In this document: one piece after another, positions 1-53,111 of the stretch
How positions within the stretch are numbered: the first letter of the stretch is position 1
How the letters are laid out: each line of letters opens with the position of its first letter
Assembly (NCBI GenBank): GCA_003104935.1
Contig: PQAE01000002.1
Coordinates: 67,527-131,526 of the forward strand
Length of the DNA: 64,000 nucleotides
Reading direction: 5' to 3'
Source: Parcubacteria group bacterium
GTDB taxonomy: Bacteria > Patescibacteriota > Patescibacteriia > UBA1558 > GWA2-36-10
Notes under the pieces: generated by a model
The model's database searches: none
Seen by the model: only the letters and a program-made list of their open reading frames with translations
Told to the model about the DNA's origin: nothing
Translations under genes and position numbers: made by a program

Positions 1-813
1 TAATCCAGCTGGCACAAATGGTATTAATGCAGCTCCTGTATCAACGCTTAAATCGACAAATGATCCTAGAAAAGCTTTTGATGCATCTGATGCCTGCTGA
101 AGATTTCCAGAAAATAAGGAACCTACAAATTGCCCTCCTTTATACAATGTATTACCAGCATCATAAGTAACAAAACCGACATCTATAGCCGTATCTACTA
201 TCTGCCCATCGGAATCCGTGTTCTTTACTGGATTATTAGCTACATAGCTATAGCTATTAAGGTTCTGTGGATTTGATAAATAATACTCTGCAGAGTAATC
301 GTACTCTTCTTCAAATTGATCACTATCATGGATTTTTAAAACGGCTGGGTCTACGCTCATAAACCTCCCCGTAGTATTATCTAAATACCTGGCTCCATAG
401 TATTGTAGATTGTTTTCTTGGTCTAATTCTTTACCGGTAAACTTCTTGGTATTATCAATAGTAGAGTTAAGAGTCTTGACTTGGCCATAGGGGTCATAAT
501 CATTGGTTTCCAGTATATTTCCCTGCCTATCGGTAATGATAGTAGGAGAACCAAGGTGGTCAGTTAGATTATACTCTGTACTAGTATTACTGAATGTGGA
601 TATCTTTTGATCGCCTAGATAGATATTAACCTTAAAATTACCGTCTTTATCTATTTCAAAGTATTTATCAATGTACTTTGTCTGATCTGTGGTGATGTTT
701 TCATAATGACCAGAGCTAGTAGCGAGTACCGGGTTGATAAAGGAAAAAAATAATAAGCCTAAGCTTATTATAGCAAATATCTTTCTGTTTGTGACTTTTC
801 TTCTGCCAGTCAT
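1..813 (-). CDS. Rhs-core polymorphic toxin paralog. N-terminal ~270 aa only; the C-terminal toxin region runs past the window start.
   Basis: Start codon at 811-813 (cat on the + strand). Nucleotides 361-900 are near-identical to 6640-7186, the 5' part of CDS 5944..7098. The translation keeps the Rhs core-end motifs (YSY..NNPVKNTDSDG) and then diverges. Confidence 0.6.
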   Translation of the reverse strand, partial: MTGRRKVTNRKIFAIISLGLLFFSFINPVLATSSGHYENITTDQTKYIDKYFEIDKDGNFKVNIYLGDQKISTFSNTSTEYNLTDHLGSPTIITDRQGNILETNDYDPYGQVKTLNSTIDNTKKFTGKELDQENNLQYYGARYLDNTTGRFMSVDPAVLKIHDSDQFEEEYDYSAEYYLSNPQNLNSYSYVANNPVKNTDSDGQIVDTAIDVGFVTYDAGNTLYKGGQFVGSLFSGNLQQASDASKAFLGSFVDLSVDTGAALIPFVPAGL

Positions 814-1130
814 ACGCTATATATTAAAGCCGTCGCTTAATTAATAGCCGTCTAATATTTATAGCTTTAATGTAATCCTCTAGATAAAATTTGTCAAATA
901 ACATTCTGACCCCCTGTTCTCCCCCTTCCACTAGAGGCGGACAAGTGGTACGGGAAGGAAATTTTTAGTAAAGAAAAAATCTTTACTTTCGCATTCCCCG
1001 CGAACGCGGGGATCTAGAAATAAAATAGTTTTCTGGACCCCCGATTCTCGCCTCTGGCGAGATCGAGGGATGCCGACTTTTTCTATCTGTTTCACCCTCT
1101 CTTGCTTTACCAGTAGGAGTTGGGTAAATT

Positions 1131-1928
1131 TTAATGTTTCTGCAAAAACCGTAAAATCTTATGGGACACAAAATCGCGGGACACGACTTCGTCCACCCGA
1201 TGATTGCCGTGATCAATGAGATAGAGACTCTTATCCTTTACTTTCAGATTTTGAAATAAATATTGAGAGCTGACCGGATCAGCCACTCGGTCCGCGCGGG
1301 AGTGTCCGATCAGTATTGGTACCCGCAAATGAGGGATATCTCTCTTGGTACAATGGCTGATAAATCTCCGGAACTGCACTAGCGTCGGCACGGGTATATG
1401 AGTATGTTGTCCCAACTCGGGCAACAGTTTGGCCTTCTCCGCCGTGATCCAGTGTTTTTTATAATTCCTCAAAAAAAATCTGGCCAGCGGCAATAAGGCG
1501 CGAATAGTATTTTCTTTATAGAGCGTGATCGGTATGCCCAGGGAAATAATGCCTTTTATTTGCGGATAACATACGCCCAGGTGGATAGCCAAGCTGGCGC
1601 CAAAAGAATAACCTAAAATATATACTTTTTTATAGCGGGCCAGATTTGCCTGCACAGCCGTATCCGCCGACTCTACCCAATCATGAAAAGTGCTACGCCG
1701 CAAATCTGCCAAAGTCGTGCCGTGTCCGGCTAAGAGGATAGTGTCTACATCATAACCGCTGGTGGCCAAAATGTCGGCTATAAAATGCAGTGAATAAGGA
1801 GTACTGCTTACGCCGTGTATAATAATAACTACCTGATCATTGTCCGGACAACTGGTAATAAAAAACGGCTGGGCTTTGGGCGGCACTCCAGTCAGGGCTT
1901 TATAGGTTTTAATCGGATATTCTGACAC
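1131..1928 (-). CDS. alpha/beta hydrolase (esterase/lipase-like)
   Basis: 265 aa with a GYSFG nucleophile elbow, an HG motif and the His/Asp pattern typical of the alpha/beta-hydrolase fold. Confidence 0.7.
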   Translation of the reverse strand: MSEYPIKTYKALTGVPPKAQPFFITSCPDNDQVVIIIHGVSSTPYSLHFIADILATSGYDVDTILLAGHGTTLADLRRSTFHDWVESADTAVQANLARYKKVYILGYSFGASLAIHLGVCYPQIKGIISLGIPITLYKENTIRALLPLARFFLRNYKKHWITAEKAKLLPELGQHTHIPVPTLVQFRRFISHCTKRDIPHLRVPILIGHSRADRVADPVSSQYLFQNLKVKDKSLYLIDHGNHRVDEVVSRDFVSHKILRFLQKH

Positions 1929-2503
1929 TATTTTTTCACTTTAAATTTATTTTTCAGATATTTCTGATATTCAGCATCCGCTTCCATCAACTCCTTGATA
2001 AAGTCGCGGATCCAATCGGCTTTTTTGGTCTGGCTATGCTCGGCTTTCCAATTTAGATAATCGCTCAGCTTACGCGATACCCGTAAAGTATATTTGATAT
2101 TAAAATACTCGGCTAGGCCGCTGGTATCCAGTTTTTCCAAAAAGTCGGCTAACTTTTGTTCCAAATCAGTAACTAAAAAATGGCTGATAGTCAGACGACC
2201 GGATACATTTTTATCCGGCCCCAGATTTTTTATAGCCGGATCAAGCTCACTGCCCTCCGGCAGTAAATACAAAACCGGTTTATTCTGCGATAGTCCCAGA
2301 GCAATCATATAGCCGGCCTGGGCATCAAGTTTTTTACCCAGGACGATTACGGCCTCTACTTGACCTAAGACATTGTCCGCCTTGGCATCACCATTTACTG
2401 TAACACTTTGATTCCAGACCGTAGCCCCCAGATTACGCAGATACTTTTCCGCATTGCGGGCCTCCAAGACACAATCTTTAGTATTATAAAAAAATATTTT
2501 CAT
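1928..2503 (-). CDS. nucleoside 2-deoxyribosyltransferase-like (flavodoxin-like fold) protein
   Basis: 191 aa. The central segment AVIVLGKKLDAQAGYMIALGLSQNKPVLYLL resembles the NDT core (GxELGYAxxxGKxVLLV). The basic C-terminal tail is unassigned. Confidence 0.35.
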   Translation of the reverse strand: MKIFFYNTKDCVLEARNAEKYLRNLGATVWNQSVTVNGDAKADNVLGQVEAVIVLGKKLDAQAGYMIALGLSQNKPVLYLLPEGSELDPAIKNLGPDKNVSGRLTISHFLVTDLEQKLADFLEKLDTSGLAEYFNIKYTLRVSRKLSDYLNWKAEHSQTKKADWIRDFIKELMEADAEYQKYLKNKFKVKK

Positions 2504-2506
2504 AGC

Positions 2507-3499
2507 TTAGGTGTTATTAAATTCGCCGGCAATATTTTGTTTCATTACTTTTTCAAAAGCCGGCAATTTCTTACGATTAGCCACGGCCCAGAGAGTCTTG
2601 GCTACGGCCGTTTCCCAGGTGCAATCCGCCAGGCAGACCAGAGAACCGCTACCAACACTTAACTCGCGGTGATACAAAATTACTGATCGGCCGCTTTTTT
2701 CCAAAAGCAACTGTTTTTCTTTTTCCAATTGGTAATTGCCGGCCAACTTAACTATAATAGCTTCATATTTTAATAAATCATTTTTGTCCAGATTCCAGTC
2801 CACACCGCGGACATCCTGAAGTGTTAATATTTTGGCCGAAATTTTATCATAGATATTTTCTCTGGGCTTAGACGTCTGCAAACCGGATTTGATACTAATG
2901 CCAAAATCTACTCGACCCCAATAATTATTATCCTGGCTGACAAACATATTGGCCCGGTCATTGCTATTTGCTGGGATCGCCTTAACCGCCGGAATAAGTC
3001 GCGTGCCAAACATAATAGCCGGTCCGGGCAAAGTTTGACTGGCCACCTGAATGGCGTTGATCAGATTGGACTTCAGGCCGGAGCCACTGTGCTTGTCACG
3101 CAATTCCTTGATTAGGGCCTTTTTCTGATTATAGTCCGTGCCGCTGATGCTGGCGCCGGTTAAAATAATAGTTTTAGAAAAATTTTGCAGTAAAAAACCA
3201 AGTATTGCTCCTGTTTGCGCCAATTGCTCTACCGGAGCTACTATGACAAAACCATCAGCCTGGCCAGCTTTAACCTTGATAATCCTAGCCATGTTTTCCC
3301 AATGGCTAAACTGCAATACATCATCCTCTCCGGCTAACAATACTGTTTCCATATCAGCCAAAATATTTAGCTCCGGCATTTGGGCTAGCCATAAAGCAAT
3401 ATCTTCTTTTTTTTGTACGGAATAAAAATGCCCTTGTTTGTCTATCAAAACAGTGCCACCGGCTAAAAGTAGATATATTTTTTTGTTATTTTTAGGCAT
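2507..3499 (-). CDS. L-asparaginase/GatD-fold protein with degenerate catalytic motifs
   Basis: 330 aa, collinear with the type I asparaginase architecture (LAGGTV..., GFVIVAPV...ILTGAS...NLINAIQVAS). The TGGT Thr nucleophile is replaced by AGGT and the HGTDT box by APVEQ. Confidence 0.5.
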   Translation of the reverse strand: MPKNNKKIYLLLAGGTVLIDKQGHFYSVQKKEDIALWLAQMPELNILADMETVLLAGEDDVLQFSHWENMARIIKVKAGQADGFVIVAPVEQLAQTGAILGFLLQNFSKTIILTGASISGTDYNQKKALIKELRDKHSGSGLKSNLINAIQVASQTLPGPAIMFGTRLIPAVKAIPANSNDRANMFVSQDNNYWGRVDFGISIKSGLQTSKPRENIYDKISAKILTLQDVRGVDWNLDKNDLLKYEAIIVKLAGNYQLEKEKQLLLEKSGRSVILYHRELSVGSGSLVCLADCTWETAVAKTLWAVANRKKLPAFEKVMKQNIAGEFNNT

Positions 3500-4184
3500 T
3501 GGTTTTTTCTTTGGGAGAGAAGATGAAATAAAATACTACAAAATTTATCAGTAAGGTAGATAATGGCCCTAAATGAGTATATCTCACATCATATGCATAA
3601 ACCAATAAAAGATTAGCGTAAGAGCTGACTAAAGCTCCGATTATAACTGCCGCTAATATAAATTTTAATTGTGACTTGTAAATTCCATCAGTAGTTCTAT
3701 ATTTTTTGACTAATAAAACAATGGACATGAACACTAAGATAAGAAAATTAAGGGTAAATAAAGTATAAGAATACCACTCAAAAGAGGCAATTACATGATC
3801 TGGCGCTATCTCAATATTAGGGACAGAAAACTGATAAAAAAACAAATAAAATACTATTGTCCATAAAACAGAGCTCGCTAAAAATATTTTTGTTCTCTTT
3901 GAAATATCAAAGGATTTATATGGAAAATTTAAAATAAACATGTACAAACAAACAATTATCAACAGCCCTGTTGGGCAACTAAGGGCTTCGGAAAACCTAA
4001 TCAGTTCATAACTAACTCCTAGGTTCGGAATAATCAACACACAGGTCCATAAAAAAGTAAAAAAAGCAACCAAGCTAAAATACAAATTTATCTTACTATT
4101 CTTTACTCCGCGGGACAAAATTATCAAACACATTAGTAAATTTACTGCCGCCGCGATTAAAAGCCAAATGTTTTGCGTATTCAT
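3492..4184 (-). CDS. stand-alone multi-pass membrane protein, histidine-kinase N-terminal 7TM-like (paralog B)
   Basis: 230 aa with 6-7 predicted TM helices. The N-terminus MNTQNIWLLIAAAVNLLM...SRGV.NSKINLYFSL..F.FLW matches the HisKA_7TM-type sensor pattern and the protein is a paralog of 4188..4859. Confidence 0.5.
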   Translation of the reverse strand: MNTQNIWLLIAAAVNLLMCLIILSRGVKNSKINLYFSLVAFFTFLWTCVLIIPNLGVSYELIRFSEALSCPTGLLIIVCLYMFILNFPYKSFDISKRTKIFLASSVLWTIVFYLFFYQFSVPNIEIAPDHVIASFEWYSYTLFTLNFLILVFMSIVLLVKKYRTTDGIYKSQLKFILAAVIIGALVSSYANLLLVYAYDVRYTHLGPLSTLLINFVVFYFIFSPKEKTNA

Positions 4185-4187
4185 ACT

Positions 4188-4859
4188 TTATTCTTTAAAA
4201 AAAGCAAGGCGAAACACCATAAAATTCATAAATAATGTAAATATAGGTCCAAAACCGACTAATTTAAAGTTAGCAAAATAACAAAGAAATAAATCGAAAT
4301 ATATGCCAAAGACTAACCCTATAGATATGGTTACTAACAGCAGCAAAATTTGTTTTTTTAAAATTCCATCTGCCTGCCGAAATTTCACCAGAAAATTTTT
4401 AATGGCTAATATGACGATTGAAATAAAAACAAATGAATATAAAATGTACAGATCTTTCCTAATAAATAAAGTGTATTCCGTTTTTAATAGATCTTTCTCT
4501 GATCCAGTAATATACATATTTCCAAAAATAAAAAAAACAAACATCAGGAGCAGTAGAACGAATAATTTATTAACAAATTTGTTTTGGACAATTTTATAAG
4601 GATAATGTACGGAAAATAAATATAAACTCATAGCAATGGCTAAAGCCGATATATATGCGGCCTGGGCATTAAAAAACCAAAACGCACTGTCTGATGTTCT
4701 GGCGTAAAATAAATTCATGCACCATAGAAAATCAAAAAACGTCAGTAAACTAAAATACAAATTTATCTTATTATTTATGACGCCGCGCGATAGCACCAAC
4801 ACACTCATAAATAAGTTGATGCTGGCCGCTATCAAAAGAATTATATTTTGGGTATTCAT
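4188..4859 (-). CDS. stand-alone multi-pass membrane protein, histidine-kinase N-terminal 7TM-like (paralog A)
   Basis: 223 aa. Shares the MNTQNIxLLIAAxxNLxM...SRGVxNxKINLYFSL N-terminus with the downstream paralog. A 4-bp intergenic gap suggests one operon. Confidence 0.5.
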   Translation of the reverse strand: MNTQNIILLIAASINLFMSVLVLSRGVINNKINLYFSLLTFFDFLWCMNLFYARTSDSAFWFFNAQAAYISALAIAMSLYLFSVHYPYKIVQNKFVNKLFVLLLLMFVFFIFGNMYITGSEKDLLKTEYTLFIRKDLYILYSFVFISIVILAIKNFLVKFRQADGILKKQILLLLVTISIGLVFGIYFDLFLCYFANFKLVGFGPIFTLFMNFMVFRLAFFKE

Positions 4860-4885
4860 AGCCGTCTTTTTTTATTAGCCGTCTA
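4859..4885 (-). promoter_or_regulatory. direct repeat of AGACGGCTA (18-bp period) in the leader, abutting the start codon of the 7TM gene
   Basis: Read on the minus strand, TAGTTATTATAGACGGCTAATAAAAAAAGACGGCTATG. A TTGACA-16-TATAGT promoter lies just upstream, on the minus strand. The same GACGGCT pair occurs in both Rhs toxin leaders. Confidence 0.3.
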
Positions 4886-5045
4886 TAATAACTATACTAT
4901 GAAAACCGGCTTTGTCAACCCCGTTAGACGCCACATAGGCTAGGGAGATGCTATGATACTTGTTCAATGCGTAAGCCATGTATAATAAAAAAACTGCTGT
5001 GATATGGAACAGCGTGTCGAGTCAATAAGTTGATAAAAGTAACAG

Positions 5046-5369
5046 CTAGCCTCCGATAAAAAAAATTTTATCTCTGTCTTCAGGATGAATAACATAACTT
5101 AATAAATCATGCCTCATCGCTCCAGTCTTTTTAAAGTTTAGTTTAGCTTCACGTAAAGTCATATGATTAGGGCCATCTAAATATTCACTATTGTCAATAT
5201 CCAAGTCATTAGCAAACTCATCTTCCCAAAAACAAACTGGACACACTAAATTTTCACCCCTACTTTCCAATGTAATGTAACCGCAGCAAGGGCATGGCTC
5301 TGTAGGATCATAATAATCAACGGATTTCTTTGAACGATACTTAAGTAATAATTCTTTGTCTTTTATCAC
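5046..5369 (-). CDS. CPCC-family cysteine-rich small protein
   Basis: 107 aa with CPCCGY...CPVCFWEDE, the signature of the CPCC cysteine-rich domain family. Confidence 0.6.
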   Translation of the reverse strand: MIKDKELLLKYRSKKSVDYYDPTEPCPCCGYITLESRGENLVCPVCFWEDEFANDLDIDNSEYLDGPNHMTLREAKLNFKKTGAMRHDLLSYVIHPEDRDKIFFIGG

Positions 5370-5385
5370 ACAATCCGATTAAATT

Positions 5386-5616
5386 TTAGTGATCAAATCC
5401 GGATAATTCAATATGTACTAATTTACCGCCTTCAGAAAAGGATAAAATTATGTCAGCCCCCAAGGAATCTAAATATTGGCACCCTTCGTCAGATAATGAA
5501 ACCGTTTTTTTTACTTTATTTTCTGAAAGCGGTATCGCAGTTAAACCGTCTTCATAATCATAGGTCACGTTGATTTTTTTTCTCTCATATATTTCATTAT
5601 TAATTACTCCGGCCAC
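5386..5616 (-). CDS. DUF2283-like small protein
   Basis: 76 aa. The pattern INVTYDYEDGLTAI...ADIILSFSEGGKLVHIELSG resembles DUF2283 (YDxExDxLYI ... IVGIEIL). It overlaps the upstream gene by 13 bp. Confidence 0.45.
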   Translation of the reverse strand: MAGVINNEIYERKKINVTYDYEDGLTAIPLSENKVKKTVSLSDEGCQYLDSLGADIILSFSEGGKLVHIELSGFDH

Positions 5617-5933
5617 CCAGTAATAAATTTTTTTAACTTATCGCGTAGTGCATTTACATCGTCCTTGGTAATATCGTCATAAAGAGCAACAAAGTCCCCG
5701 TTATCATAATATAGCATGTCCAAGGAATTTATTATTATTGACAAATCTTCAAATTTTAAAACATAATCCATTTTCTGCAATCTTTCATTAACCCTCTTGT
5801 ACACTTCACGATCAAATAAAAATTTCACTTTCTTTAATATATATGGATATCCCCACGAATCAATTAAGCTCTTGCCTATAATATATTTTTCCTGTTTACT
5901 TAAAATTAAAAAATGTTGTATTTGCTCTGTCAT
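5604..5933 (-). CDS. hypothetical protein, candidate cognate immunity protein for the upstream Rhs-CT toxin
   Basis: 109 aa with no recognisable motif. It lies immediately downstream (10 bp) of the Rhs toxin on the same strand. Confidence 0.4.
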   Translation of the reverse strand: MTEQIQHFLILSKQEKYIIGKSLIDSWGYPYILKKVKFLFDREVYKRVNERLQKMDYVLKFEDLSIIINSLDMLYYDNGDFVALYDDITKDDVNALRDKLKKFITGWPE

Positions 5934-5943
5934 TTTATAGTTA

Positions 5944-7098
5944 TTATTTTTTAAAAAAATCCCCTAATATATTTTCTTTGACGTATTTATATGCCTTATC
6001 TGGTTGGAATACTGTAGGTTGTTTTGGATTGTCAATAAATAGAATATTATCTTTAATGTTATAAAAATATTTTTTAACTCCCTTAATAGTTGCCTTGATA
6101 TCAAAATTCTTGAATGTATCCTTGGTTATATCTGTCACCTCTTCGATTGTCTTTCCTTTAAAATGACCCTGCTCTAATGCGTGCCTCGCCGCTGAAATGA
6201 ATGTTTTGTCTGCTGTTTCTAAACTTTTCCCAATAACTTTCTCCTCTCCACCCACACTAGTATCAAGAGTCGTTAACAACAAGGAAAATAATCTTGTGTT
6301 TGTCTTTTGTTCAGGGTCATAAAGATTGGCCACGTTATCAACAAAATCACCCAAGCTATTTGTAACAAACCCTGAAGCTTTACTGACGGTGCCACCCTGA
6401 TTACAAGTATAATTAGCCGCATTATGTAGGAATGAAGAAATATCTCTCTGACCACTAGCCATATCTACACCAAACTGACCATAAAATTTTCCATCAGGAT
6501 CCGTATATTTTACCGGATTATCCCCAGCATAACTATAACTATTCAGGTTTTGTGGATTAGCCAGTTGTTCTTGGACACTTCTACCATAGGCCTTGGTAAA
6601 ATCCTGGTCATCATTAAGTATAAAAAGTGCCGGATCTATAGAATAAAATCTCCCTGTAGTATTATCTAAATACCTGGCTCCATAGTATTGTAGATTGTTT
6701 TCTTTATCTAATTCTTTACCGGTAAACTTCTTGGTATTATCAATAGTGGAGTTAAGAGTCTTGGCTTGACCATAGGGGTCATAATCATTGGTTTCAAGTA
6801 TATTTCCTTGACTGTCGGTAATAATGGTGGGAGAACCGAGGTGATCGTTTATGTCATACTGTGTGCTAGTATTACTGACTGTGGATATCTTTTGATCACC
6901 AATATAGATATTGACCTTAAAATTACCGTCTTTATCTATTTCAAAGTACTTATCAATATATTTAGTCTGATCGGTAGTGACATTTTCATAGTGACCAGAC
7001 TCGGTCGCAAAGATTGGTTGTACAAATAAAAAAAATAACAGGAATAATACTATTATAGCAAAAATCCTGTTGTTTGTGACTTTTCTTCTGCCAGTCAT
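5944..7098 (-). CDS. secreted short Rhs-core polymorphic toxin (signal peptide, Rhs repeat-associated core, variable C-terminal toxin domain)
   Basis: 384 aa with an N-terminal hydrophobic signal/TM segment. DINDHLGSP...YDPYGQ...FTGKELDKENNLQYYGARYLDNTTGRFYSIDP...NLNSYSYAGDNPVKYTDPDG is the Rhs/YD core with the terminal DPxG site. About 185 aa of unassigned C-terminal domain follow it. Confidence 0.7.
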   Translation of the reverse strand: MTGRRKVTNNRIFAIIVLFLLFFLFVQPIFATESGHYENVTTDQTKYIDKYFEIDKDGNFKVNIYIGDQKISTVSNTSTQYDINDHLGSPTIITDSQGNILETNDYDPYGQAKTLNSTIDNTKKFTGKELDKENNLQYYGARYLDNTTGRFYSIDPALFILNDDQDFTKAYGRSVQEQLANPQNLNSYSYAGDNPVKYTDPDGKFYGQFGVDMASGQRDISSFLHNAANYTCNQGGTVSKASGFVTNSLGDFVDNVANLYDPEQKTNTRLFSLLLTTLDTSVGGEEKVIGKSLETADKTFISAARHALEQGHFKGKTIEEVTDITKDTFKNFDIKATIKGVKKYFYNIKDNILFIDNPKQPTVFQPDKAYKYVKENILGDFFKK

Positions 7099-7112
7099 AC
7101 GCTATATATTAA

Positions 7113-7143
7113 AGCCGTCGCTTAATTAATAGCCGTCTAATAT
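7113..7143 (-). promoter_or_regulatory. GACGGCT direct-repeat pair in the Rhs toxin leader
   Basis: Read on the minus strand, TTAGACGGCTATTAATTAAGCGACGGCTTTAATATATAGCGTATG. An identical copy lies at 828-853 upstream of the other Rhs paralog. Confidence 0.3.
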
Positions 7144-7240
7144 TTATAGCTTTAATGTAATCCTCTAGATAAAATTTGTCAAGAAAAAATGCCCCTTCAA
7201 CAAGGCCACTTTTGGGTCAACCCTAGTCGCTAAAATGAAA

Positions 7241-7268
7241 CTCCCCCGCGGCAATGCCTACGGGGGAG
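7241..7268 (-). terminator. rho-independent terminator downstream of the tRNA
   Basis: Stem CTCCCCCG/CGGGGGAG with a 12-nt loop, followed on the minus strand by TTTCATTTTA. Confidence 0.5.
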
Positions 7269-7272
7269 AAAT

Positions 7273-7370
7273 TGGAGCCGGTGAGAGGACTTGAACCTCC
7301 AACATATGGTTTAAAACGAAACCAGGGCTTCGTCATCCACCACTGCTCTACCAATTGAGCTACACCGGCC
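7273..7370 (-). tRNA. tRNA-like gene with a ~21-nt insertion in the anticodon loop; anticodon unassigned (possible intron-containing tRNA or pseudogene)
   Basis: Read on the minus strand, G+GCCGGTG TA GCTC-AATTGGTA-GAGC A GTGGT[28 nt]ACCAT ATGTT GGAGG-TTCAAGT-CCTCT CACCGGC T CCA. The acceptor, D and T arms are canonical and CCA is encoded. The anticodon stem GTGGT/ACCAT encloses 28 nt instead of 7. Confidence 0.55.
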
Positions 7371-7493
7371 AGTCTTAGGTATATGTACTCACAGTTGGAT
7401 ATATTAGCAGAAAAGGATTTATTGTCAAGAAAACAAAAATACCCCTAGGCCAAGCACTGTGGTTTTTAGAAAACTTTTTTATAGAAATTAAAA

Positions 7494-17802: not shown

Positions 17803-17959
17803 AAATTTCTGGGCGGTTTTCGTTTAAAAAAATAGTGTCGTTTTTAAAACAACAAGAAACGTGCCGGCGGAGTCTGTCCTTTAAATACGATAACCTGGTA
17901 AGGGGTTGACGATAACAATATTTTATGTTATCCTCTGGAGGCATTTATTTGCTATAACT

Positions 17960-39363: not shown

Positions 39364-40872
39364 CTATTTCTTCAATTTTTCTTTAAGCAATCTTTCCACT
39401 ATCTGCGGATTAGCTTGGCCACGGCTTTCGGCCATGACTTTACCGATAAAAAATTTTAGCAGGGCCTCTTTGCCGGACTGATAAGCCCGTACTTGTTCTG
39501 GATACGACATGATGATTTTTATGACAAAGTCGCTCAAGGTAGCCTGATCGTCCTCCTGTAATAATTTTAAATCCTCGGCTATATGGCTAGGATCGTCGTC
39601 CACACCCTTGAACATCTCTCTAACGATAGTCCGCCCGGCTGAACTGTTTATTTTTTTTAGATAAATCAAGGATAAAAATTCGGCCATATTTTCGGCACTG
39701 ATTTTAAAATTTTTGTAGTCAAAATCTCCTTTGATCAGGGCAAAAATCTCGGTGCTGATCCAATTATAGGCCAATTTAGCCAGCTTTTCCCGGTGTTCGG
39801 CCCAGAGCTTGTCGGCGGCCGGACTATCCTGGGCTACTTTACGCTCGGCCAGAAGCCAGGCCTGTAGTTCAGACATCACTTCTTCAAAATATCCGGCCCA
39901 TTCTTTTTGGTTAATTAAAACCCGGGCGTCTTTATAATTTAACTGATACTCTCTGACAAAGCGCTCAGCTTTGGCCTGTGGTAATTCAGTCTGTTTGGCT
40001 TTGATCTCGGTCAATAATTCTTTGCTAATAATTAGCGGCGGTAAATCCGGCTCCGGAAAATAACGGTAATCGGAAGAACCCTCTTTAGTCCGCTGTAAAA
40101 CTGTCACGCCTTTATTTTCATCCCAACCTCTGGTCTCCGTGATCTTTGGTGCTTTTTTCTGATCCCAGAGTTTGCTTTGACGATCAATCTCAAATATCAA
40201 AGCCCGCTCTACGGAACGGAAAGAATTTAGATTTTTTATCTCTATCTTGGGATAAAGTTTAGCTTGACCTTGCGGTCGCAGAGAGATATTGGCATCGCAA
40301 CGTAATTGTCCTTTTTCCATGTCCGCATCACTCACTCCCAGATAACGCGCTATTAATCTTAATTCCTGTAAAAATTCTTTGGCTTCGGACGGTGTCCGGA
40401 AATCCGGCCTGGTTACTATCTCCGCTAAGGGCGCTCCCCCGCGATTAAAATCAGTCAGAGTATTTCCGCCTCGGTGGATATTTTTAGCGGCATCTTCTTC
40501 CAGATGCAAGCGCTCAATACCAAAACGTTTTCTTCTACTGTCAATATTTAAAATCAAATGCCCTTCACCGGCCAATGGCTCATCAAATTGGGAGATTTGA
40601 TAACCCTTGGCTAAGTCCGGATAAAAATAATTTTTCCGGTCAAATTTTGACCGCTGATTTATCTTACAGTTTAGTGCCAAAGCCATGGCCAGACCCTGAT
40701 GCACCGCGGCTTGATTAACCGTCGGCAGAGTGCCGGGATGACCCAGACAAATCGGACAAACCAAAGAATTAGGTGCCTGATTATCCCGATTCGCGCAAGC
40801 ACAAAACATCTTGCTCTTAGTCTTGAGCTGTAGGTGGATTTCCAAACCAATAATTGTTTCGTATTTACCCAT
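39364..40872 (-). CDS. gatB: Asp/Glu-tRNA amidotransferase subunit B
   Basis: 502 aa with a GatB N-terminus (YETIIGLEIHLQL) and a GatB/YqeY C-terminal domain. Confidence 0.9.
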   Translation of the reverse strand: MGKYETIIGLEIHLQLKTKSKMFCACANRDNQAPNSLVCPICLGHPGTLPTVNQAAVHQGLAMALALNCKINQRSKFDRKNYFYPDLAKGYQISQFDEPLAGEGHLILNIDSRRKRFGIERLHLEEDAAKNIHRGGNTLTDFNRGGAPLAEIVTRPDFRTPSEAKEFLQELRLIARYLGVSDADMEKGQLRCDANISLRPQGQAKLYPKIEIKNLNSFRSVERALIFEIDRQSKLWDQKKAPKITETRGWDENKGVTVLQRTKEGSSDYRYFPEPDLPPLIISKELLTEIKAKQTELPQAKAERFVREYQLNYKDARVLINQKEWAGYFEEVMSELQAWLLAERKVAQDSPAADKLWAEHREKLAKLAYNWISTEIFALIKGDFDYKNFKISAENMAEFLSLIYLKKINSSAGRTIVREMFKGVDDDPSHIAEDLKLLQEDDQATLSDFVIKIIMSYPEQVRAYQSGKEALLKFFIGKVMAESRGQANPQIVERLLKEKLKK

Positions 40873-41492
40873 TATAATATTTTATCTATGGCTGTTTTGA
40901 TTTCGGCGGCAATATTTTCCACACTACCCACAGCCTTAATCACTGACCAATTTTTATTTTCCTTTGCTTGCCGCAGATAACCCTCGCGCACGGCCAGATG
41001 AAACTCTTTAGCTTCGTTATCTAGCCGGTCTTGTTTGGACTCCCGCCGACGCTCGTCGGCCTGCTCCGGAGTGATGTCTAAATATATGACCAGATCGGGC
41101 TCCAGGTCGTATTTGGCCCACTGATTCATTTCTCTTATTACTGCTAAATCTAACTGCCGCGCCGCACCTTGATAAGCAAAAGTGGACCCATCAAAACGAT
41201 CACATAGTACAATTTTATTCTGGGATAAAGCCGGTTCCACTACTTCCTTGACGTGCTGAGCGCGGGAGGCTAAAAAAAGCAATAATTCAGTGCGGCTGTC
41301 CATAGCCCCGTGTTCTTTATCCAGGATGATTGATCTTATTTTTTCGGCGATAACTGACCCGCTCCCTCCCGGCTCTCTGGTCAGCAGTATATCTTTCCCC
41401 TGGGAAATTAAATACTGCTTGGCCAGTTCAATCTGGGTGCTCTTACCGGACTTATCCCCACCTTCAAAAACTATAAATTTTCCACTGGCCAT
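40872..41492 (-). CDS. tmk: thymidylate kinase
   Basis: FIVFEGGDKSGKST P-loop and a DRF/lid region. Confidence 0.85.
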   Translation of the reverse strand: MASGKFIVFEGGDKSGKSTQIELAKQYLISQGKDILLTREPGGSGSVIAEKIRSIILDKEHGAMDSRTELLLFLASRAQHVKEVVEPALSQNKIVLCDRFDGSTFAYQGAARQLDLAVIREMNQWAKYDLEPDLVIYLDITPEQADERRRESKQDRLDNEAKEFHLAVREGYLRQAKENKNWSVIKAVGSVENIAAEIKTAIDKIL

Positions 41493-41523
41493 GTCTTATT
41501 ATAATAACACAAAAAATGACATT

Positions 41524-42135
41524 TTACTGCTTATTTTTTTCTATGTGACAGTGACGGCAAAGAGGAATATAAGCCTCTGATCCGCCGACCAAGATCTTTT
41601 CCGTTGACTTGACGATGCGATGACTGCGCGAAGCCAGTTTGCCGCAACCACGGCAGACCGGATGTAATTTTTCTACAAACTCGGCTTCGGCCAGGAGCTC
41701 AGGGACTCCGGCAAAAGGCTTACCGGCGTAATCCTGATCTAAGAAAGTAACAATCACTACTTTGCCGCTGTCGGCTAATTTGCGGATATCTCTGGTTAAA
41801 TCGTCTGTTTTTAGAAATTGAGCTTCATCAATAGCTACGATATCTACCTCATTATTTTCCAGCCATCGAAATATGTCCGCCATACTACTGACATTTTGGG
41901 CATTGAAAGAAGAGCCTTTGTGGGTCACTACCTTTTCGTCATCATAGCGGTCGTCCAACTTACTTTTAAAAAGAGCAATTTTTTTTGCCGCGTCTTTTCT
42001 GACTTCATTGGTAATCTCAATACGGTTAAGCTGTTTTAAGAGCTCTTCGCTTTTGCCGGCAAACATGGCTCCGGTAATCACCCAGATAAATCCGCCCCGG
42101 CACATGACCATAGCATTGTCTAAAAAAATTTCCAT
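41524..42135 (-). CDS. tdk: thymidine kinase
   Basis: P-loop GAMFAGKSEEL and a C-terminal zinc ribbon (CxxCG...CRHC). Confidence 0.85.
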   Translation of the reverse strand: MEIFLDNAMVMCRGGFIWVITGAMFAGKSEELLKQLNRIEITNEVRKDAAKKIALFKSKLDDRYDDEKVVTHKGSSFNAQNVSSMADIFRWLENNEVDIVAIDEAQFLKTDDLTRDIRKLADSGKVVIVTFLDQDYAGKPFAGVPELLAEAEFVEKLHPVCRGCGKLASRSHRIVKSTEKILVGGSEAYIPLCRHCHIEKNKQ

Positions 42136-42163
42136 GACCGAAAAATTTAATTATTTAAAATTA

Positions 42164-42586
42164 TTAGTAACCCGAGGAGCCTTCCCGCCCGGCACCACGG
42201 ACGGTCTGGTCCAGCTCTTTTGTTTCCGCAAAAACCGGACTTTCGTGTTTTTCTATAATCAGCTGGGCGATACGGTCGCCGGCTTTGATTTGATAATCTT
42301 CGTCGGACAAATTAATCATCGCCACTACTAATTCACCGCGATAATTGGAATCGACCACGCCGGCCAAAGTATGTAAGCCATGCTTTACCGCCAAGCCGCT
42401 CCGGTCGCGCACATTGCCCCAGTAACCTTCGGGAATGGCTATAGCCACGCCCGTTTTTAGCACTGTCCTCTGCCCGGCAGGCAATAAGACATCGTCTAAA
42501 GAGCTAACATCAAAACCGGCGTCGCCCGGATGCATAGCTTGCGGCATAGTCGCCCGATTGTCTAATTTTTTAATTTTTATCTCCAT
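42164..42586 (-). CDS. dut: dUTP diphosphatase
   Basis: dUTPase motifs AGFDV and GVVDSNYRGEL. Confidence 0.85.
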   Translation of the reverse strand: MEIKIKKLDNRATMPQAMHPGDAGFDVSSLDDVLLPAGQRTVLKTGVAIAIPEGYWGNVRDRSGLAVKHGLHTLAGVVDSNYRGELVVAMINLSDEDYQIKAGDRIAQLIIEKHESPVFAETKELDQTVRGAGREGSSGY

Positions 42587-43076
42587 CTTTTACCAGTTCT
42601 ACAAACTTAAATCTGATTCCATTATACTCCTGTTTTTCTTCTTTTAATACTTGGTTAAACTCTCCGTATTCGGGAAAAAAAGTGTCGGCTGGATACACGG
42701 CATCAATCATCGTCAGATATAATTTGTCGGCATATTTTATAGCCTGACGATAGATGGATGCGCCACCGATAAAAAATATTTCGCTGTCTCCTGATTTTTT
42801 AGACCAGTTCAAGGCCTCTTCGATGGAATGAAAAACCGGACAATCCACCGGTGCAACAAAATTTTTATCCAAAGACAAGATTACATTAATGCGTTTGGGT
42901 AAGGGTTTAGAACCCAGAGACTCAAAAGTAGTCTGCCCCATAATTACTATGTGCCCGCTGGTTATTGCTTTAAAATGCTTCAGGTCATCAGGCAAGTGTA
43001 CTAAAAGCTTATTTTTGTAGCCGATGCCCCGGTCTTTGGCAATGGCGGCGATGATGCTGATAGTTGGTATGTTCAT
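42570..43076 (-). CDS. folA: dihydrofolate reductase
   Basis: ISIIAAIAKDRGIG...LP and a DHFR fold pattern. Overlaps dut by 17 bp. Confidence 0.85.
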   Translation of the reverse strand: MNIPTISIIAAIAKDRGIGYKNKLLVHLPDDLKHFKAITSGHIVIMGQTTFESLGSKPLPKRINVILSLDKNFVAPVDCPVFHSIEEALNWSKKSGDSEIFFIGGASIYRQAIKYADKLYLTMIDAVYPADTFFPEYGEFNQVLKEEKQEYNGIRFKFVELVKDGDKN

Positions 43077-43143
43077 ATTATTTATTTAAACCTTTCTACC
43101 CCCCCCCACCATCTCCACCTTACCAAGGGGGAGGGAGAGGGGG

Positions 43144-44040
43144 TTAAACCGCTATCGGCGCTTTAATACTGGGATAAGGATCATAATTTTCCAAGGTAAA
43201 ATCTTCGTACATAAAATCTTCAATATTTTTAATATCCGGATTTATTTTCATGGTCGGCAAACCGCGCGGTGTCCGGGATAACTGTTCTTTGACCTGATCA
43301 AAATGATTAAGATAAATATGAGTGTCTCCGTAGGTATGGACAAAAGTACCCGGTTGCAGACCGGTCACCTGCGCCACCATCATCAGTAGTAACGAATAGG
43401 AAGCGATATTAAAAGGTACGCCCAAAAAAGTATCACAAGAGCGCTGATACATTTGGACCGATAACTTGCCCTTGGCGACATAAAACTGGAAAAAGCAATG
43501 ACAGGGCGGCAAAGCCGTCAGTGGTACCTCCGGCGGATTCCAGGCGCTCACAATCAGTCGCCGGTCATTAGGTTTAGTTTTTATACGTTCAATAACTTCT
43601 TTGAGTTGATCCACACCGCCAAAATCTCGCCACTGTTTGCCGTAGCCCGGTCCGATGCTCCCCCACTTTTTAGCAAACTCCTCGTCCGCCTTAATATTAT
43701 TTATATATTCCTCCAACTTTTTATCCCAGGCCTCACTGTATTTAGGAAACTCCGTGGTCAAATTATTGAGCTCCAAATATTTTTGAAAAGGCCACTCATT
43801 CCAAATACTGACCCCGTTATCTACTAAATATCTAATATTAGTGTCGCCGTGGATAAACCAAATCAGTTCGTGAATAATTGCTTTAAGAAACATTTTTTTG
43901 GTGGTCAGTAGTGGAAAACCATCAGCCAGATCAAATCTAAGCTGGGCGCCAAAAATACTGCGCGTACCCACGCCGGTGCGGTCGTCTTTATCAACCCCTT
44001 CTTCTATAATCTTTCTTAATAGATCTAGATACTGTTTCAT
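43144..44040 (-). CDS. thyA: thymidylate synthase (ThyA)
   Basis: MKQYLDLL...DRTGVGT and the active-site Cys motif PCH. The start is moved to MKQYL. Confidence 0.9.
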
Positions 44041-44123
44041 AAATTTAATCCTGCACCATCCATAGCCTTGGCGAAGGATGGTCATCCATTATTTTCTTTA
44101 GTAACCGCAAATATTGCCGCATA

Positions 44124-44603
44124 TTATTTCAGACGCTCACAAAATTCACTAAGCTTATTATTCTCAATAAAATTATTAAAATCATGAGCCTTCAAAGTGG
44201 CGGCATTTTTAGTACAATAATAAAATTCACTATAGGTATCTTTTAAAATCAAATCATTTTTATTTTGACTCAGACTATCCCAATCTTCACTAGCCACATT
44301 AGCTAGCACATTTGTTTTATAAAAATCCTTCCGGCAATCATAGTGCGGCATAAAATAATAACCTTGTTCTAATTTTTGTATTGGGCCAAGTTTTCTGGAC
44401 CAACCGTCTATGTTGCCCTGCGCATTTAGCAGAAAAACCGCTTTATCGGAAAAATCATAAGGTCCCTTGAAAACATAATTACAGATTGTGCCCGGACCAG
44501 CCTTAGTATCGTCTACTACCGCCAGCCTGTGAAAACGATTATACAAAAGCCACGCCGTAGCGCTAAGCAGTATAATTATTAATAAAATTTTTAATATTTT
44601 CAT
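44124..44603 (-). CDS. hypothetical secreted/membrane-anchored protein
   Basis: 159 aa with an N-terminal signal/TM helix and several Cys. Confidence 0.4.
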   Translation of the reverse strand: MKILKILLIIILLSATAWLLYNRFHRLAVVDDTKAGPGTICNYVFKGPYDFSDKAVFLLNAQGNIDGWSRKLGPIQKLEQGYYFMPHYDCRKDFYKTNVLANVASEDWDSLSQNKNDLILKDTYSEFYYCTKNAATLKAHDFNNFIENNKLSEFCERLK

Positions 44604-45142
44604 TTCAGTAAATTATCTAATTGCCGATATAACTCTTCCGCTGAACCGTTGTTATCCACGACCACATCGGCTAACTTCATCAGAGGCGGAATATTCACTT
44701 CTGTTTCTAATTGGTGGTCGGCCAAAAACTGTTCCCAGGTCTTATTTTTGTCATCCGGATTTTCCGCACGTCTGGTCAATCTTTCATATCTAATTTTGGG
44801 ATCCGCTTCAATAGATACCAGCTTGAAACCTGCTATTTTTTTTAAATGTTCTACGTCAGCCTGACGCCGCGCGCCGTCTACGACCACGATTTTAGCATCT
44901 GATTTGGCTACATCCGCGGCCATGACCTTGGCAAAAAGGTCTTCGCCAAATCTTTCTCTGAGTAAAGTAGAAAGATTAGACATATTTTCCCGCGAATGTT
45001 CCAGATACAAACGATCCAAGACATCGCGCATAATAGTGGAGAAGCGAAAGGATTGGGCTCCGTATTTTTCTACAAAATATTTAGCCACCGTGCCTTTGCC
45101 GCTGGAAAGTAATCCTACTAATACTATTATTTTTTTAGTCAT
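44600..45142 (-). CDS. P-loop nucleoside/nucleotide kinase (adenylate/dNMP kinase-like)
   Basis: 180 aa with the Walker [10 protein letters not shown]. Its position inside the dNTP-metabolism cluster suggests the substrate class. Confidence 0.45.
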
Positions 45143-45575
45143 TACTAATTATGTTTAAAGCATAAAGACACATCTGGCGGACGGCCTCCGGCATATTGGC
45201 CAAATTTTCAATCTCCTCTTTATCAAACCATTTGATATCCAGGCTCTCGTTGCTTTTTTTTACTTGATCAGTGCTGGCGGTCATTAAATAATACTGACAA
45301 TAGTGGTTATGGTCTCCGACGCTATGGACATCAGCGTGAAAGGGCAAAGGATTACTTTTGATTTCATCAGCTGTCTGCGGCAAAGAACTATAATTTACAT
45401 ATTCCGCACTTATCCCCGCTTCTTCCTGTAATTCGCGAAGCACGGCCTCATCCGGCGTCTCATCTGCTTCGATATGACCACCGGGACACAGCCATTTATT
45501 TAACTTGGTATGCAAAACTAATAATACTTTCTGATTAAAAACTACAACCGCGCCAATGGTTAAATCAGTTTTCAT
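45135..45575 (-). CDS. NUDIX hydrolase
   Basis: Nudix box [24 protein letters not shown]. Confidence 0.75.
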
Positions 45576-45577
45576 AT

Positions 45578-46153
45578 TTATTGAATAGTAAGTTTCTTAG
45601 CCGGCACAAACTGCCTATATTTTATTCCTGCGGCCTCTAACAGTTTTTTGGACGCTACCCACAAGTCAACATCCTTATATTTGTCATCCTGATACACTAC
45701 TTCCGTGATTCTGTTTTGAATTATAGCCTTGGCACAATCATTGCAGGGAAACAAATGACAATAAAGCACACTGCCCTTCACTGACTTATTGGCATTAAAA
45801 ATGGCATTTACCTCGGCATGCACGATGTAGGGATATTTGGTGTTTAGAAATTCTTTCTTTTCATAGCCGCCTTCACGATCCCAGGGAAAAGCATCTTGAT
45901 CCACGCCGCGCGGCCAGCCATTATACCCCATGCCCAAAACGATATGATTTTGATCCACGATCACGGCTCCGGTCTGGGTGCTCGGGTCTTTGGACCTCTG
46001 GGCGATCAGATCCGCCATAAACATAAAAGTTTCATCCCATGATAAGTAATCTTTTCTGGCTTCGGCCTTAGACATATTTTTATAATTTAACTCTCTAATT
46101 TTAGCAAAATAGACTGCTTTAATCAAACTTAAAAATTGGCTTACATTAGCCAA
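45578..46153 (-). CDS. dCMP deaminase
   Basis: Cytidine/deoxycytidylate deaminase zinc motifs HAEVNAI and PCNDCAK. Confidence 0.85.
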
Positions 46154-48656: not shown

Positions 48657-49040
48657 GGGGATGTCTTTATTCGATGTCAGATGAAGTGATTTGTGGCAAG
48701 CGGAGTCTGCTATCTCCTTAAAAAGGCTAACAAAATAAGTGCCAAAAACTTATTTGCCAAAGTCCAGGGACTGTTCGCAGTTCCGAGACTGGCCCCAGTT
48801 TTAGCATAAATTTGCTGAAACCATCTCTAGCCAGGTTCGCCTGAGACGGGCTACGGGGTGTCATTTATCGGGATAGAAATAATTCGCGCCGACCGGATTA
48901 TTTCGAAACTAAGATCGGCTGGATGATCAGTGTTTTGCTAATTTTTAAGCTGATGATCGAGAACCAAAAAATTAACTAAGCTTGTAGAAATAAATCAGGA
49001 CATTTGTCAGACAGGGGTGTAATACCCCTCATCTCCACCA
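48657..49040 (+). ncRNA. ssrA: tmRNA (transfer-messenger RNA)
   Basis: 5' GGGGATG..TTCGATG and 3' AGGGG-TGTAATA-CCCCT CATCTCC A CCA. The acceptor stem has the G3-U70 Ala identity pair and a discriminator A. A candidate tag reading frame ends ...GCAGTTCCGAGACTGGCCCCAGTTTTAGCATAA (AVPRLAPVLA*). It is adjacent to smpB. The T-loop is atypical. Confidence 0.65.
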
Positions 49041-52324: not shown

Positions 52325-52699
52325 CTACTTTAAGGATCTTTTCACTTTTTGCACTACCTGTTCTAGTGTCCAATCCGTCTTAACCAGATAATCCAAAGTT
52401 TTGTCCTGGCTCAAAGTGGACTCCCGGGGCACGTTGGAGAGATTGGTTAAAATAATGACCTTAGCTTCTTGACCCCAGGAATCTTCCCGGAGCTTGGCCA
52501 GCATGGTCAGACCGTCCATCCGGGGCATGATGATATCCAGCAGAATTATATCCGGATGTTCGGCCAAAGCAATGTTTAGACCGTCTAAGCCATCGTGTGC
52601 CGTCAGTACCTTAAAGTCTTGAGAAAACTTATGCTTTAAAGCCATGAGTTGAGGAGCCTCGTCTTCCACAATTAAAATTTTATTCTTGGTCTTGGCCAT
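52325..52699 (-). CDS. single-domain response regulator (CheY-like receiver)
   Basis: 124 aa with ILIVEDE...DIILLDIIMPRMDG...KVIILT and no output domain. Confidence 0.8.
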   Translation of the reverse strand: MAKTKNKILIVEDEAPQLMALKHKFSQDFKVLTAHDGLDGLNIALAEHPDIILLDIIMPRMDGLTMLAKLREDSWGQEAKVIILTNLSNVPRESTLSQDKTLDYLVKTDWTLEQVVQKVKRSLK

Positions 52700-52706
52700 A
52701 TGAATA

Positions 52707-53090: not shown

Positions 53091-53111
53091 AAAATAATAT
53101 AAATTAATTAT

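Follow-up and report, generated by a model that had tools for sequence, protein, structure and literature searches.

The repressor MetJ has S-adenosylmethionine as its co-repressor, and NikR reads the sequence GTATGA-N16-TCATAC. At the RNA level, CsrA dimers bridge two sites with an optimal separation near 18 nt; CsrA sites contain GGA, are often exposed in hairpin loops and overlap the ribosome-binding site. For MetJ, the optimal met-box is AGACGTCT, repeated in tandem every 8 bp, and the ribbon that reads it has the sequence KKITVSIP (PMC3413123). ParG binds to arrays of short repeats, direct or inverted, within AT-rich flanks (PMC3413123). Bacteria of the candidate phyla radiation (CPR) are uncultivated, and hence almost nothing has been learned of their gene regulation. 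We have analyzed a stretch of 64,000 nucleotides from a Parcubacteria group bacterium (assembly GCA_003104935.1, contig PQAE01000002.1, positions 67,527 to 131,526; hereafter the window, numbered from its first letter), in which pairs of short boxes with the core GACGGC recur in the leaders of an operon headed by two seven-transmembrane (7TM) proteins and of two genes encoding Rhs-like toxins. The 7TM operon also encodes p191, a protein of 191 amino acids. A literature search on the motif, on HisKA_7TM, on fusions of ribbon-helix-helix (RHH) and deoxyribosyltransferase domains and on CPR regulons found nothing relevant. The reading that we favor, with a probability of about 0.55, is that the boxes would be promoter-proximal DNA operators to which a repressor binds, the leading candidate for this repressor being p191.

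The resemblance to MetJ is striking, and we take it as a lead and not as a test. The box AGACGGCT is one base off the met-box optimum and forms the near-palindrome AGnCGnCT. K and T occupy the same register in the MetJ ribbon and in the putative ribbon of p191 (IKYTLRVS). In both systems, repeated boxes are found in operators overlapping the promoter or start-site region, each box is bound by an RHH dimer in MetJ and may be so here, and the small-molecule co-factor that controls binding in MetJ is presumed to have a counterpart. The met-boxes are, however, contiguous with an 8-bp period, whereas the boxes studied here are 16-18 bp apart with a free spacer; they are also asymmetric and mostly in one orientation. 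Moreover, no sequence similarity of p191 to MetJ was found, its sensor fold is like that of DNPH1 and the deoxyribosyltransferases rather than the S-adenosylmethionine site of MetJ, and the putative regulon comprises toxins and receptors instead of methionine genes.

Other systems share part of these properties. In RHH regulators of the NikR type, two RHH dimers held by a ligand-binding domain read two short sites more than one helical turn apart, and these regulators repress their own or neighboring operon, as is proposed here for p191. The sites of NikR are nevertheless inverted and its RHH domain is N-terminal, while most of the sites here are direct repeats and p191 has its RHH-like tail at the C-terminus and another sensor fold. 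ParG and omega also use short repeats, direct or inverted, in AT-rich flanks and in variable number (two or three here), but their units of 4-7 bp are adjacent, they have no sensor domain and their context is plasmid partition. The CsrA/RsmA system resembles the leaders studied here by its two short words about 18 nt apart in an unstructured 5′ leader, one of them near the start codon in some units. It differs in that our boxes have no GGA core and are not presented by hairpins, their distance to the ATG is not conserved, some copies are inverted or non-transcribed, and the loci showed no CsrA gene. A resemblance of GCCGTCT to the DNA-uptake sequence of Neisseria, which has a CTG core, was rejected because the word is no denser than background and lacks the CTG core.

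Paired boxes in the window and in related loci

A first-pass annotation had reported GACGGCT pairs upstream of the 7TM gene pair and of the two Rhs toxin genes, each lying between a -10 element and the ATG. All three pairs were found on the minus strand, and each of them sits between a sigma-70-like promoter and the start codon (Table 1). The start-to-start spacing, which had been given as 18-21 bp, was measured as 17 in the 7TM leader and as 18 in both Rhs leaders. That one motif occurs twice per leader is correct for the 7TM operon, where AGACGGCT is found twice. At the Rhs sites the second copy reads CGACGGCT, so that the word common to all boxes is GACGGCT.

The GACGGCT word occurs 13 times in the window against 4.9 expected. 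This excess is due to the six paired words alone; the remaining seven are singletons, near background level. Three GACGGC pairs at a spacing of 16-18 were counted, compared with 0.003 per simulated window (300 first-order Markov simulations), and a one-mismatch search of the window revealed no additional GACGGC pair. Judged from the sequence, the three units share a near-consensus layout in which a sigma-70-like promoter is followed by the pair. The terminator-like hairpin just upstream of the 7TM promoter is predicted to isolate the 7TM transcription unit. The two Rhs copies belong to one 537-bp duplication (361-897 and 6646-7182, 88% identical), in which identity reaches 100% over the promoter, the leader and the first 28 coding bases, and the coding sequence after that is strongly diverged.

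Relatives' loci were gathered via the 7TM protein (genome and metagenome scans), by exact look-ups of 7TM homologues and via p191 homologues. Since the best 7TM homologue is only 52% identical, no close relative is available and any conservation is informative. The gene order 7TM array, asparaginase-like gene, p191 gene and hydrolase gene is kept throughout these loci. In relatives, 15 distinct leaders have the pair after a near-consensus sigma-70 promoter and ahead of the 7TM operon, among them those of L001-L004, L006, L010, L012, L014, L017, L019, L022, L023, L026 and L154. The operon proteins of these loci are only 34-64% identical to those of the window (29-64% for the relatives as a whole). 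The layout of these leaders is TTGACA, 16-17 nt, TATAnT, 6-9 nt (15 in L019), R-GACGGC-K, an AT-rich spacer and a second R-GACGGC-K; the boxes are spaced by 16-17 nt and the ATG follows after 0-25 nt. In L023, the nearest informative relative (p191 64% identical), the -35, the -10 and both boxes are kept, the spacer between the boxes is altered and 19 nt are inserted before the ATG. More generally, the orthologous 7TM leaders have retained both boxes and the -35 and -10 hexamers, and have diverged everywhere else. The GACGGC core is invariant in 41 of 42 boxes, with mostly A at position -1 and mostly T at position +7, and the rest is AT-rich and free. The spacing is 16 in five cases, 17 in nine and 18 in seven. 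Finally, in 278 kb of non-redundant related sequence, nearly every intergenic GACGGC belongs to a pair. This invariance and this intergenic exclusivity indicate a real element that is both ancient and specific, and several lineages show the association of 7TM and Rhs genes again. We consider the existence of a shared cis-regulatory element to be highly probable.

The opposite view, that the pairs have no function and arose by chance, or merely accompany the 537-bp Rhs duplication or a mobile promoter cassette, has some observations in its favor. Two of the three window copies are indeed one duplication, and the spacing-18 leaders of unrelated genes are alike from the -35 to box 2, from which it follows that promoter-leader modules may move with toxin cassettes. 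Mobility of such modules leaves the invariance of the boxes unexplained, however, and the orthologous 7TM leaders, in which solely the promoter hexamers and both boxes are kept, contradict both chance and by-product, as do the number of pairs over expectation and the near exclusivity of intergenic GACGGC words. The concern that the motif was only a by-product of the duplication, raised in the first-pass annotation, is thus ruled out, as the same pair recurs in the diverged leaders of relatives. We regard an absence of function as a very remote prospect.

In the relatives, the pairs that precede genes other than the 7TM operon have mostly a spacing of 18 and a second box reading gCGACGGCT, like those of the Rhs genes of the window. 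Rhs/SpvB-type toxin genes carry the pair in L010, L019, L150 and probably L025, and several genes for small proteins or peptides are boxed as well (Table 1). A further spacing-18 pair was seen in L017 (4388-4411, minus strand) after a TATAAT box, and in the 220 nt downstream of it no open reading frame (ORF) of at least 40 amino acids begins; the product of this unit may be a small RNA or a very short peptide.

Two variants of the box were also noted. In L010, L012, L014, L022 and L025, box 1 is extended to AGACGGC(T/G)GTCT, a 12-bp near-palindrome of the form AGAC-nGCn-GTCT; in RNA the extended box 1 could pair with box 2, and the extension is absent from the other leaders. In L157, the most distant p191 lineage, the 12-mer TTAGCGCCGTCG is present at 17862-17873 and 17936-17947, 74 bp apart and about 240-310 bp upstream of a 7TM gene, and single GCCGTCT words are also found after p191. 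This repeat may represent a different architecture of the same box.

Recognition on DNA or on RNA

The distance from the -10 to box 1 is constrained (about 6-9 or 15-17 nt), whereas that from box 2 to the ATG is loose (0 to about 100 nt). A distance fixed relative to the -10 and loose relative to the ATG ties the element to the promoter and not to the ribosome-binding site, which leans towards DNA. In L156, a Komeilibacteria contig whose p191 is 29% identical, the pair is inverted (GCCGTCG-N11-GCCGTCG) but occupies the usual place: the sole promoter-like site ends 8 nt before it, and the asparaginase-like/p191 operon has its ATG 27 nt further on. The promoter spacer of L010 contains a third box, AGCCGTCT, which is inverted, touches the -10 hexamer and precedes box 1 by 19 nt. 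We estimate at about 0.003 the probability that an 8-mer of this kind would occur by chance within 40 nt of any one of the 21 leaders. Recognition on DNA is favored by the inverted pair of L156 and by the spacer box of L010. The peptide leader of L014 is likewise preceded by an inverted copy, a weaker one.

RNA structure was searched in several ways. Neither a scan of the 7TM leader at E≤10 nor a scan of the whole window at gathering thresholds revealed a relevant Rfam family. Folding of 17 leaders gave structures not more stable than those of shuffled sequences (z -1.6 to +2.0), and the flanks of the boxes pair no more than shuffled controls, with at most one further pair in 34 of 42 boxes. 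Without RNA structure, the boxes are expected to be recognized as linear words, by a protein or, conceivably, an RNA. Taken together, these data make it somewhat more likely than not that the element acts on DNA. The first-pass annotation had suggested a dimeric DNA- or RNA-binding regulator; a multimeric sequence-specific regulator that would co-control the 7TM and Rhs genes is still the natural reading, and the alternative that had been left open between DNA and RNA now leans towards DNA.

An element acting on RNA would consist of two single-stranded GACGGCU words bound by a dimeric RNA-binding protein of the CsrA type, or by a small RNA, with control exerted on translation or mRNA stability. 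All pairs lie past the predicted -10 and hence would be transcribed, around 40 of 44 boxes read in the sense direction, and the flexible spacing of 16-18 nt, close to the two-site optimum of CsrA dimers, is as expected for a single strand. Furthermore, box 2 is located 0-3 nt from the ATG in several 7TM leaders, and the genes of the organism mostly have no Shine-Dalgarno sequence. An RNA element is difficult to reconcile with the L156 pair, which is inverted relative to both the sole promoter and the downstream operon, and with the third box of L010, which stands in a non-transcribed promoter spacer. The constraint is on the distance to the -10 and not on that to the ATG, the boxes have neither a GGA motif nor structure nor a hairpin, and no conserved RNA-binding protein is encoded in the neighborhood. 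We therefore regard an RNA-level element as unlikely. A role of the box as a Shine-Dalgarno or anti-Shine-Dalgarno sequence was also considered and rejected: across the whole window, gene starts mostly have AT-rich leaders devoid of a recognizable Shine-Dalgarno (AGGAG is found in a few), and other genes have no such box, which therefore does not serve as a general signal for ribosome binding.

A specific RNA candidate is the guanidine-II (mini-ykkC) riboswitch family, which has two hairpins with ACGR tetraloops on stable stems. The core can be read as G-ACGG-C, the tip of a hairpin with such a tetraloop closed by G-C, and two copies are present in a 5′ leader near the start codon, where two hairpins would kiss upon ligand binding. 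The stems are missing, however, since the box flanks pair only at the shuffled level. No mini-ykkC match was obtained at E≤10, fold energies are not below those of the shuffles, and the downstream genes encode toxins and receptors, not guanidine transporters or carboxylases. This candidate was rejected, its likelihood being practically nil.

The regulator might instead be a response regulator, for instance the partner of the HisKA_7TM-GAF kinase found in the islands of relatives, serving either to activate or to repress. The repeats are direct, true 7TM histidine kinases are encoded in the L026, L150 and L152 islands (in L026 directly upstream of boxed genes), and the window itself encodes at 52325-55835, on the minus strand, a Cache-HAMP-PAS-HisKA-HATPase kinase followed by two receivers. 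Both receivers (52325-52699 and 52707-53090) are, however, stand-alone REC domains with no DNA-binding output, and a scan of about 40 ORFs of the window, like that of the conserved islands in relatives, found no response regulator with an output domain. Sites of OmpR/PhoB have a period of 10-11 bp and those of LytTR of about 21 bp, and they are usually upstream of or overlapping the -35; the period of 16-18 bp and the position past the -10, where a repressor would bind, are unlike these, and a near-palindromic box better suits a reader with two-fold symmetry. A response-regulator site appears quite improbable. Thus, the proposal made in the first-pass annotation of a shared regulator linking the toxins to the 7TM proteins is supported by conservation, while its suggestion of a response-regulator type is not, given the period, the position and the stand-alone receivers.

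p191 as a candidate repressor

Because p191 is the sole conserved protein of the neighborhood with a plausible nucleic-acid-binding part, it is the best candidate for the regulator. In all related loci its gene and the asparaginase-like gene are neighbors, and this holds even for distant lineages that have their 7TM genes at another place. The family has 124 members, and all those for which the source gives an organism come from Patescibacteria or CPR. The AlphaFold2 (AF2) model of full-length p191 (alignment of 18 sequences, pLDDT 74) contains an N-terminal alpha/beta domain, for which the best Foldseek matches in the PDB are DNPH1/RCL, MilB and BcmB (E from 7e-5). These proteins have the nucleoside-deoxyribosyltransferase fold of nucleotide N-glycosidases. 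The model continues with a low-confidence linker, a coil at 136-143 and helices at 144-157 and 161-175. The most conserved segment of the protein is this tail, NIKYTLR.S..I.DYL.WK......KADW.R, in which K-x-T-x-R is invariant down to 29% identity and polar and hydrophobic residues alternate along K-Y-T-L-R-V-S. An alternating strand pattern followed by two helices resembles an RHH domain, which we assign as putative. Against PHROG, 12 of 15 C-terminal tails of p191 matched "transcriptional repressor" (best E 1.7e-4) and 4 of 15 "Arc-like repressor", weakly but consistently. The names given to p191 homologues by JGI include "predicted DNA-binding protein" and "HicB family". Both K-x-T-x-R and GACGGC are invariant across the family, so that there is no covariation of ribbon and box to compare. 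We propose p191 as the protein that binds to the boxes, as a tentative assignment held at rather less than even odds.

The following mechanism is consistent with these data. In each unit, a near-consensus sigma-70 promoter is followed, 6-17 bp past the -10, by two or three 8-bp boxes A-GACGGC-T, 16-18 bp apart with an unconstrained AT-rich spacer, which would hence extend from about +1 to +35. A lineage-specific repressor with at least two DNA-reading heads would occupy the boxes and block open complex formation, promoter escape or early elongation. Once it is released, the 7TM (HisKA_7TM) operon would be switched on jointly with the cassettes for Rhs/SpvB-type toxins and the genes for small secreted or membrane peptides. 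If p191 is this repressor, it would act as an oligomer in which two or three ribbon dimers are tethered through flexible linkers by the DNPH1-like domains, the ribbon K-Y-T-L-R reading the near-palindromic box. Such an oligomer would cover the boxes at about +1 to +35 and, in L010, also the -10 region. The N-terminal domain would be a nucleotide sensor and oligomerization module, and a nucleotide-like ligand would release p191 from the boxes. Since p191 is encoded inside a boxed operon, this would amount to negative autoregulation. We infer the binding on DNA, the sign of the regulation (repression), the identity of the regulator and its ligand; the motif with its conservation and position, the sets of boxed genes, the lack of RNA structure and the inverted boxes were observed.

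Several observations weigh against the repressor model. The p191 protein has neither a Pfam match nor a usable sequence match in the PDB, where matches to antibody light chains were spurious. Alignment by hhalign of the p191 tail profile with MetJ gave a probability of 0.3%. In the AF2 model of the isolated tail, two long helices are formed, the "ribbon" is helical and Foldseek found no match; a domain that folds only as a dimer would nonetheless make this model uninformative. A separation of 16-18 bp places neighboring boxes on different faces of the helix, which makes a rigid cooperative DNA complex unlikely, and the model assumes a flexible linker. The sense orientation of most boxes, all of them in the presumably transcribed leader, is what an RNA element would also show. 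Every promoter described here is predicted from its match to the consensus. The distribution of the boxes is not uniform either: L021 and L152, which encode p191, are devoid of both boxes at the 7TM operon, L150 has only the first one there, and neither the Rhs-like gene of L023 nor the RHS-CHAP gene of L150 is boxed.

Irrespective of the regulator, the pair is a cis-element validated by comparison, which defines a small regulon tying putative receptors to inter-bacterial toxins and secreted peptides. The boxes constitute an undescribed regulon of an ordinary kind, namely repressor operator boxes, and its content is moderately interesting. The pattern GACGGC-N10-12-GACGGC after a -10 box can serve as a search tag for co-regulated competition genes in Parcubacteria metagenomes. 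A pattern-only scan of viral contigs gave 160 matches, none in an AT-rich promoter-like context and all in GC-rich or coding repeats; as these matches are all unrelated, pattern-only scans of big collections are uninformative. The full model, a Patescibacteria-specific switch in which a nucleotide-sensing domain of deoxyribosyltransferase fold joined to a met-box-like RHH domain autoregulates an operon for kinase-less 7TM receptors and gates Rhs/SpvB toxins and secreted peptides, in an island to which relatives add a FeeM/autoinducer-synthase-like acyltransferase, an AMP-ligase and a 7TM histidine kinase, is possible but doubtful. If true, it would be a quorum- or neighbor-sensing competition regulon in an episymbiotic uncultivated lineage. 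A plausible regulator being encoded next to the boxes, the hypothesis can be tested with a single protein of 191 amino acids and about 70 bp of DNA.

Genes around the boxes

A Parcubacteria group metagenome-assembled genome encodes a protein identical to the 7TM protein (locus tag C3F02_00480), and an identical-protein look-up gave matches from the same organism only. The two 7TM proteins of the window match HisKA_7TM (PF16927) over the full profile length with 22.7 and 27.7 bits (cut-off 28.6), and a precomputed PF16927 match is present on many 7TM homologues. Neither window protein has any kinase domain. The Rhs-like proteins of the window have an N-terminus resembling a signal peptide and score 17-22 bits against RHS, below the threshold of 27.9. 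Their N-terminal 200 amino acids are 78% identical, their C-termini differ, and small unrelated genes follow them. Clear RHS, TEN_YD-shell and SpvB domains were found in a comparably sized protein of L150 and in the boxed 2285-amino-acid gene of the same locus.

Table 1. Boxes, predicted promoters and genes in the window, and boxed genes and islands in related loci
Feature	Sequence	Position	Strand	Remarks
7TM-operon promoter TTGACA-16-TATAGT	window	4891..4918	-	11/12 consensus; top promoter-like score within 600-7400
7TM-operon leader box 1	window	4877..4884	-	AGACGGCT; starts 6 nt past -10 hexamer
7TM-operon leader box 2	window	4860..4867	-	AGACGGCT; abuts ATG at 4859
Rhs toxin 2 promoter TTGACA-17-TACATT	window	7154..7182	-	sigma-70-like consensus match
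Rhs toxin 2 leader box 1	window	7131..7138	-	AGACGGCT
Rhs toxin 2 leader box 2	window	7113..7120	-	CGACGGCT; ATG at 7098
Rhs toxin 1 promoter TTGACA-17-TACATT	window	869..897	-	-35 hexamer is the exact start of the duplication
Rhs toxin 1 leader box 1	window	846..853	-	duplicate of Rhs toxin 2 box 1
Rhs toxin 1 leader box 2	window	828..835	-	duplicate of Rhs toxin 2 box 2; ATG at 813
Terminator-like hairpin and T-run	window	4996..5013	-	just upstream of 7TM promoter
Terminator-like hairpin	window	7191-7206		upstream of Rhs toxin 2 promoter
7TM protein 1	window	4188..4859	-	223 aa, HisKA_7TM-like; first gene of boxed operon
7TM protein 2	window	3492..4184	-	230 aa, HisKA_7TM-like paralogue
Asparaginase-N-domain protein	window	2507..3499	-	330 aa; always next to p191 gene in relatives
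p191, candidate regulator	window	1928..2503	-	191 aa; DNPH1/nucleoside-deoxyribosyltransferase-like N-domain and putative RHH C-terminus (IKYTLRVS)
Alpha/beta hydrolase (Hydrolase_4)	window	1131..1928	-	final gene of conserved operon
Rhs-like toxin 2	window	5944..7098	-	384 aa, signal peptide, weak RHS match, variable C-terminus
Small immunity-like genes	window	5046-5933		after Rhs-like toxin 2
Rhs-like toxin 1	window	1..813	-	runs off window; directly after hydrolase gene, as in L007, L010, L019
Rhs-like homologues	L010, L019			boxed; L019 copy frameshifted
SpvB/RHS/FG-GAP gene	L150			2285 aa; three boxes, spacings 18 and 16
Gene following hydrolase	L025			three boxes; probably Rhs/SpvB-type
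Cys-rich protein	L014			64 aa, beside radical-SAM gene; boxed
Cys-rich protein	L026			66 aa, directly after HisKA_7TM-GAF-HisKA-HATPase kinase; boxed
Membrane peptide	L152			77 aa; boxed
Putative D-Ala-D-Ala-dipeptidase (VanX)-like gene	L021			assigned by eye from translation; boxed
Extended island	L026	11560-18867
Extended island	L150	11442-18067
Extended island	L152	10579-17342

In the relatives, a larger island follows the hydrolase gene. It encodes an AMP-dependent ligase, a further 7TM protein, a methyltransferase, a FeeM/autoinducer-synthase-like acyltransferase and a HisKA_7TM-GAF-HisKA-HATPase kinase, then RHS toxins or peptides. This composition suggests a module for signal production, signal reception and competition, with possible synthesis and sensing of an acyl signal next to the toxins. 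The window contains a reduced version of the island, with an Rhs/immunity cassette (4900-7270, 31.5% GC) located between cysS/tRNA and the 7TM genes. At the position of this cassette, the relatives have other genes and a 460-amino-acid 7TM protein that heads the operon and in part of its copies gives faint or weak GAF matches; the operon of the window is headed by a short 7TM paralogue instead.

A tRNA of 94-97 nt was detected directly upstream of the promoter of Rhs toxin 2 (window 7273-7369, minus strand, Rfam 54.9 bits). ARAGORN assigns no anticodon to it, which implies that it carries an insertion and suggests that an intron-containing tRNA is the insertion point of the Rhs/immunity cassette. 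A similar tRNA-like sequence was recognized by eye in L023, at about 5500-5610, ahead of the Rhs-like gene. Elsewhere in the window, a full-length transfer-messenger RNA (tmRNA), missed by the ARAGORN scan, is located at 48657-49040 on the plus strand (Rfam 124.6 bits). A dense run of (deoxy)nucleotide metabolism genes occupies 40872-46153 on the minus strand and encodes thymidylate kinase, thymidine kinase, dUTPase, DHFR, a kinase-like AAA protein, NUDIX and dCMP deaminase.

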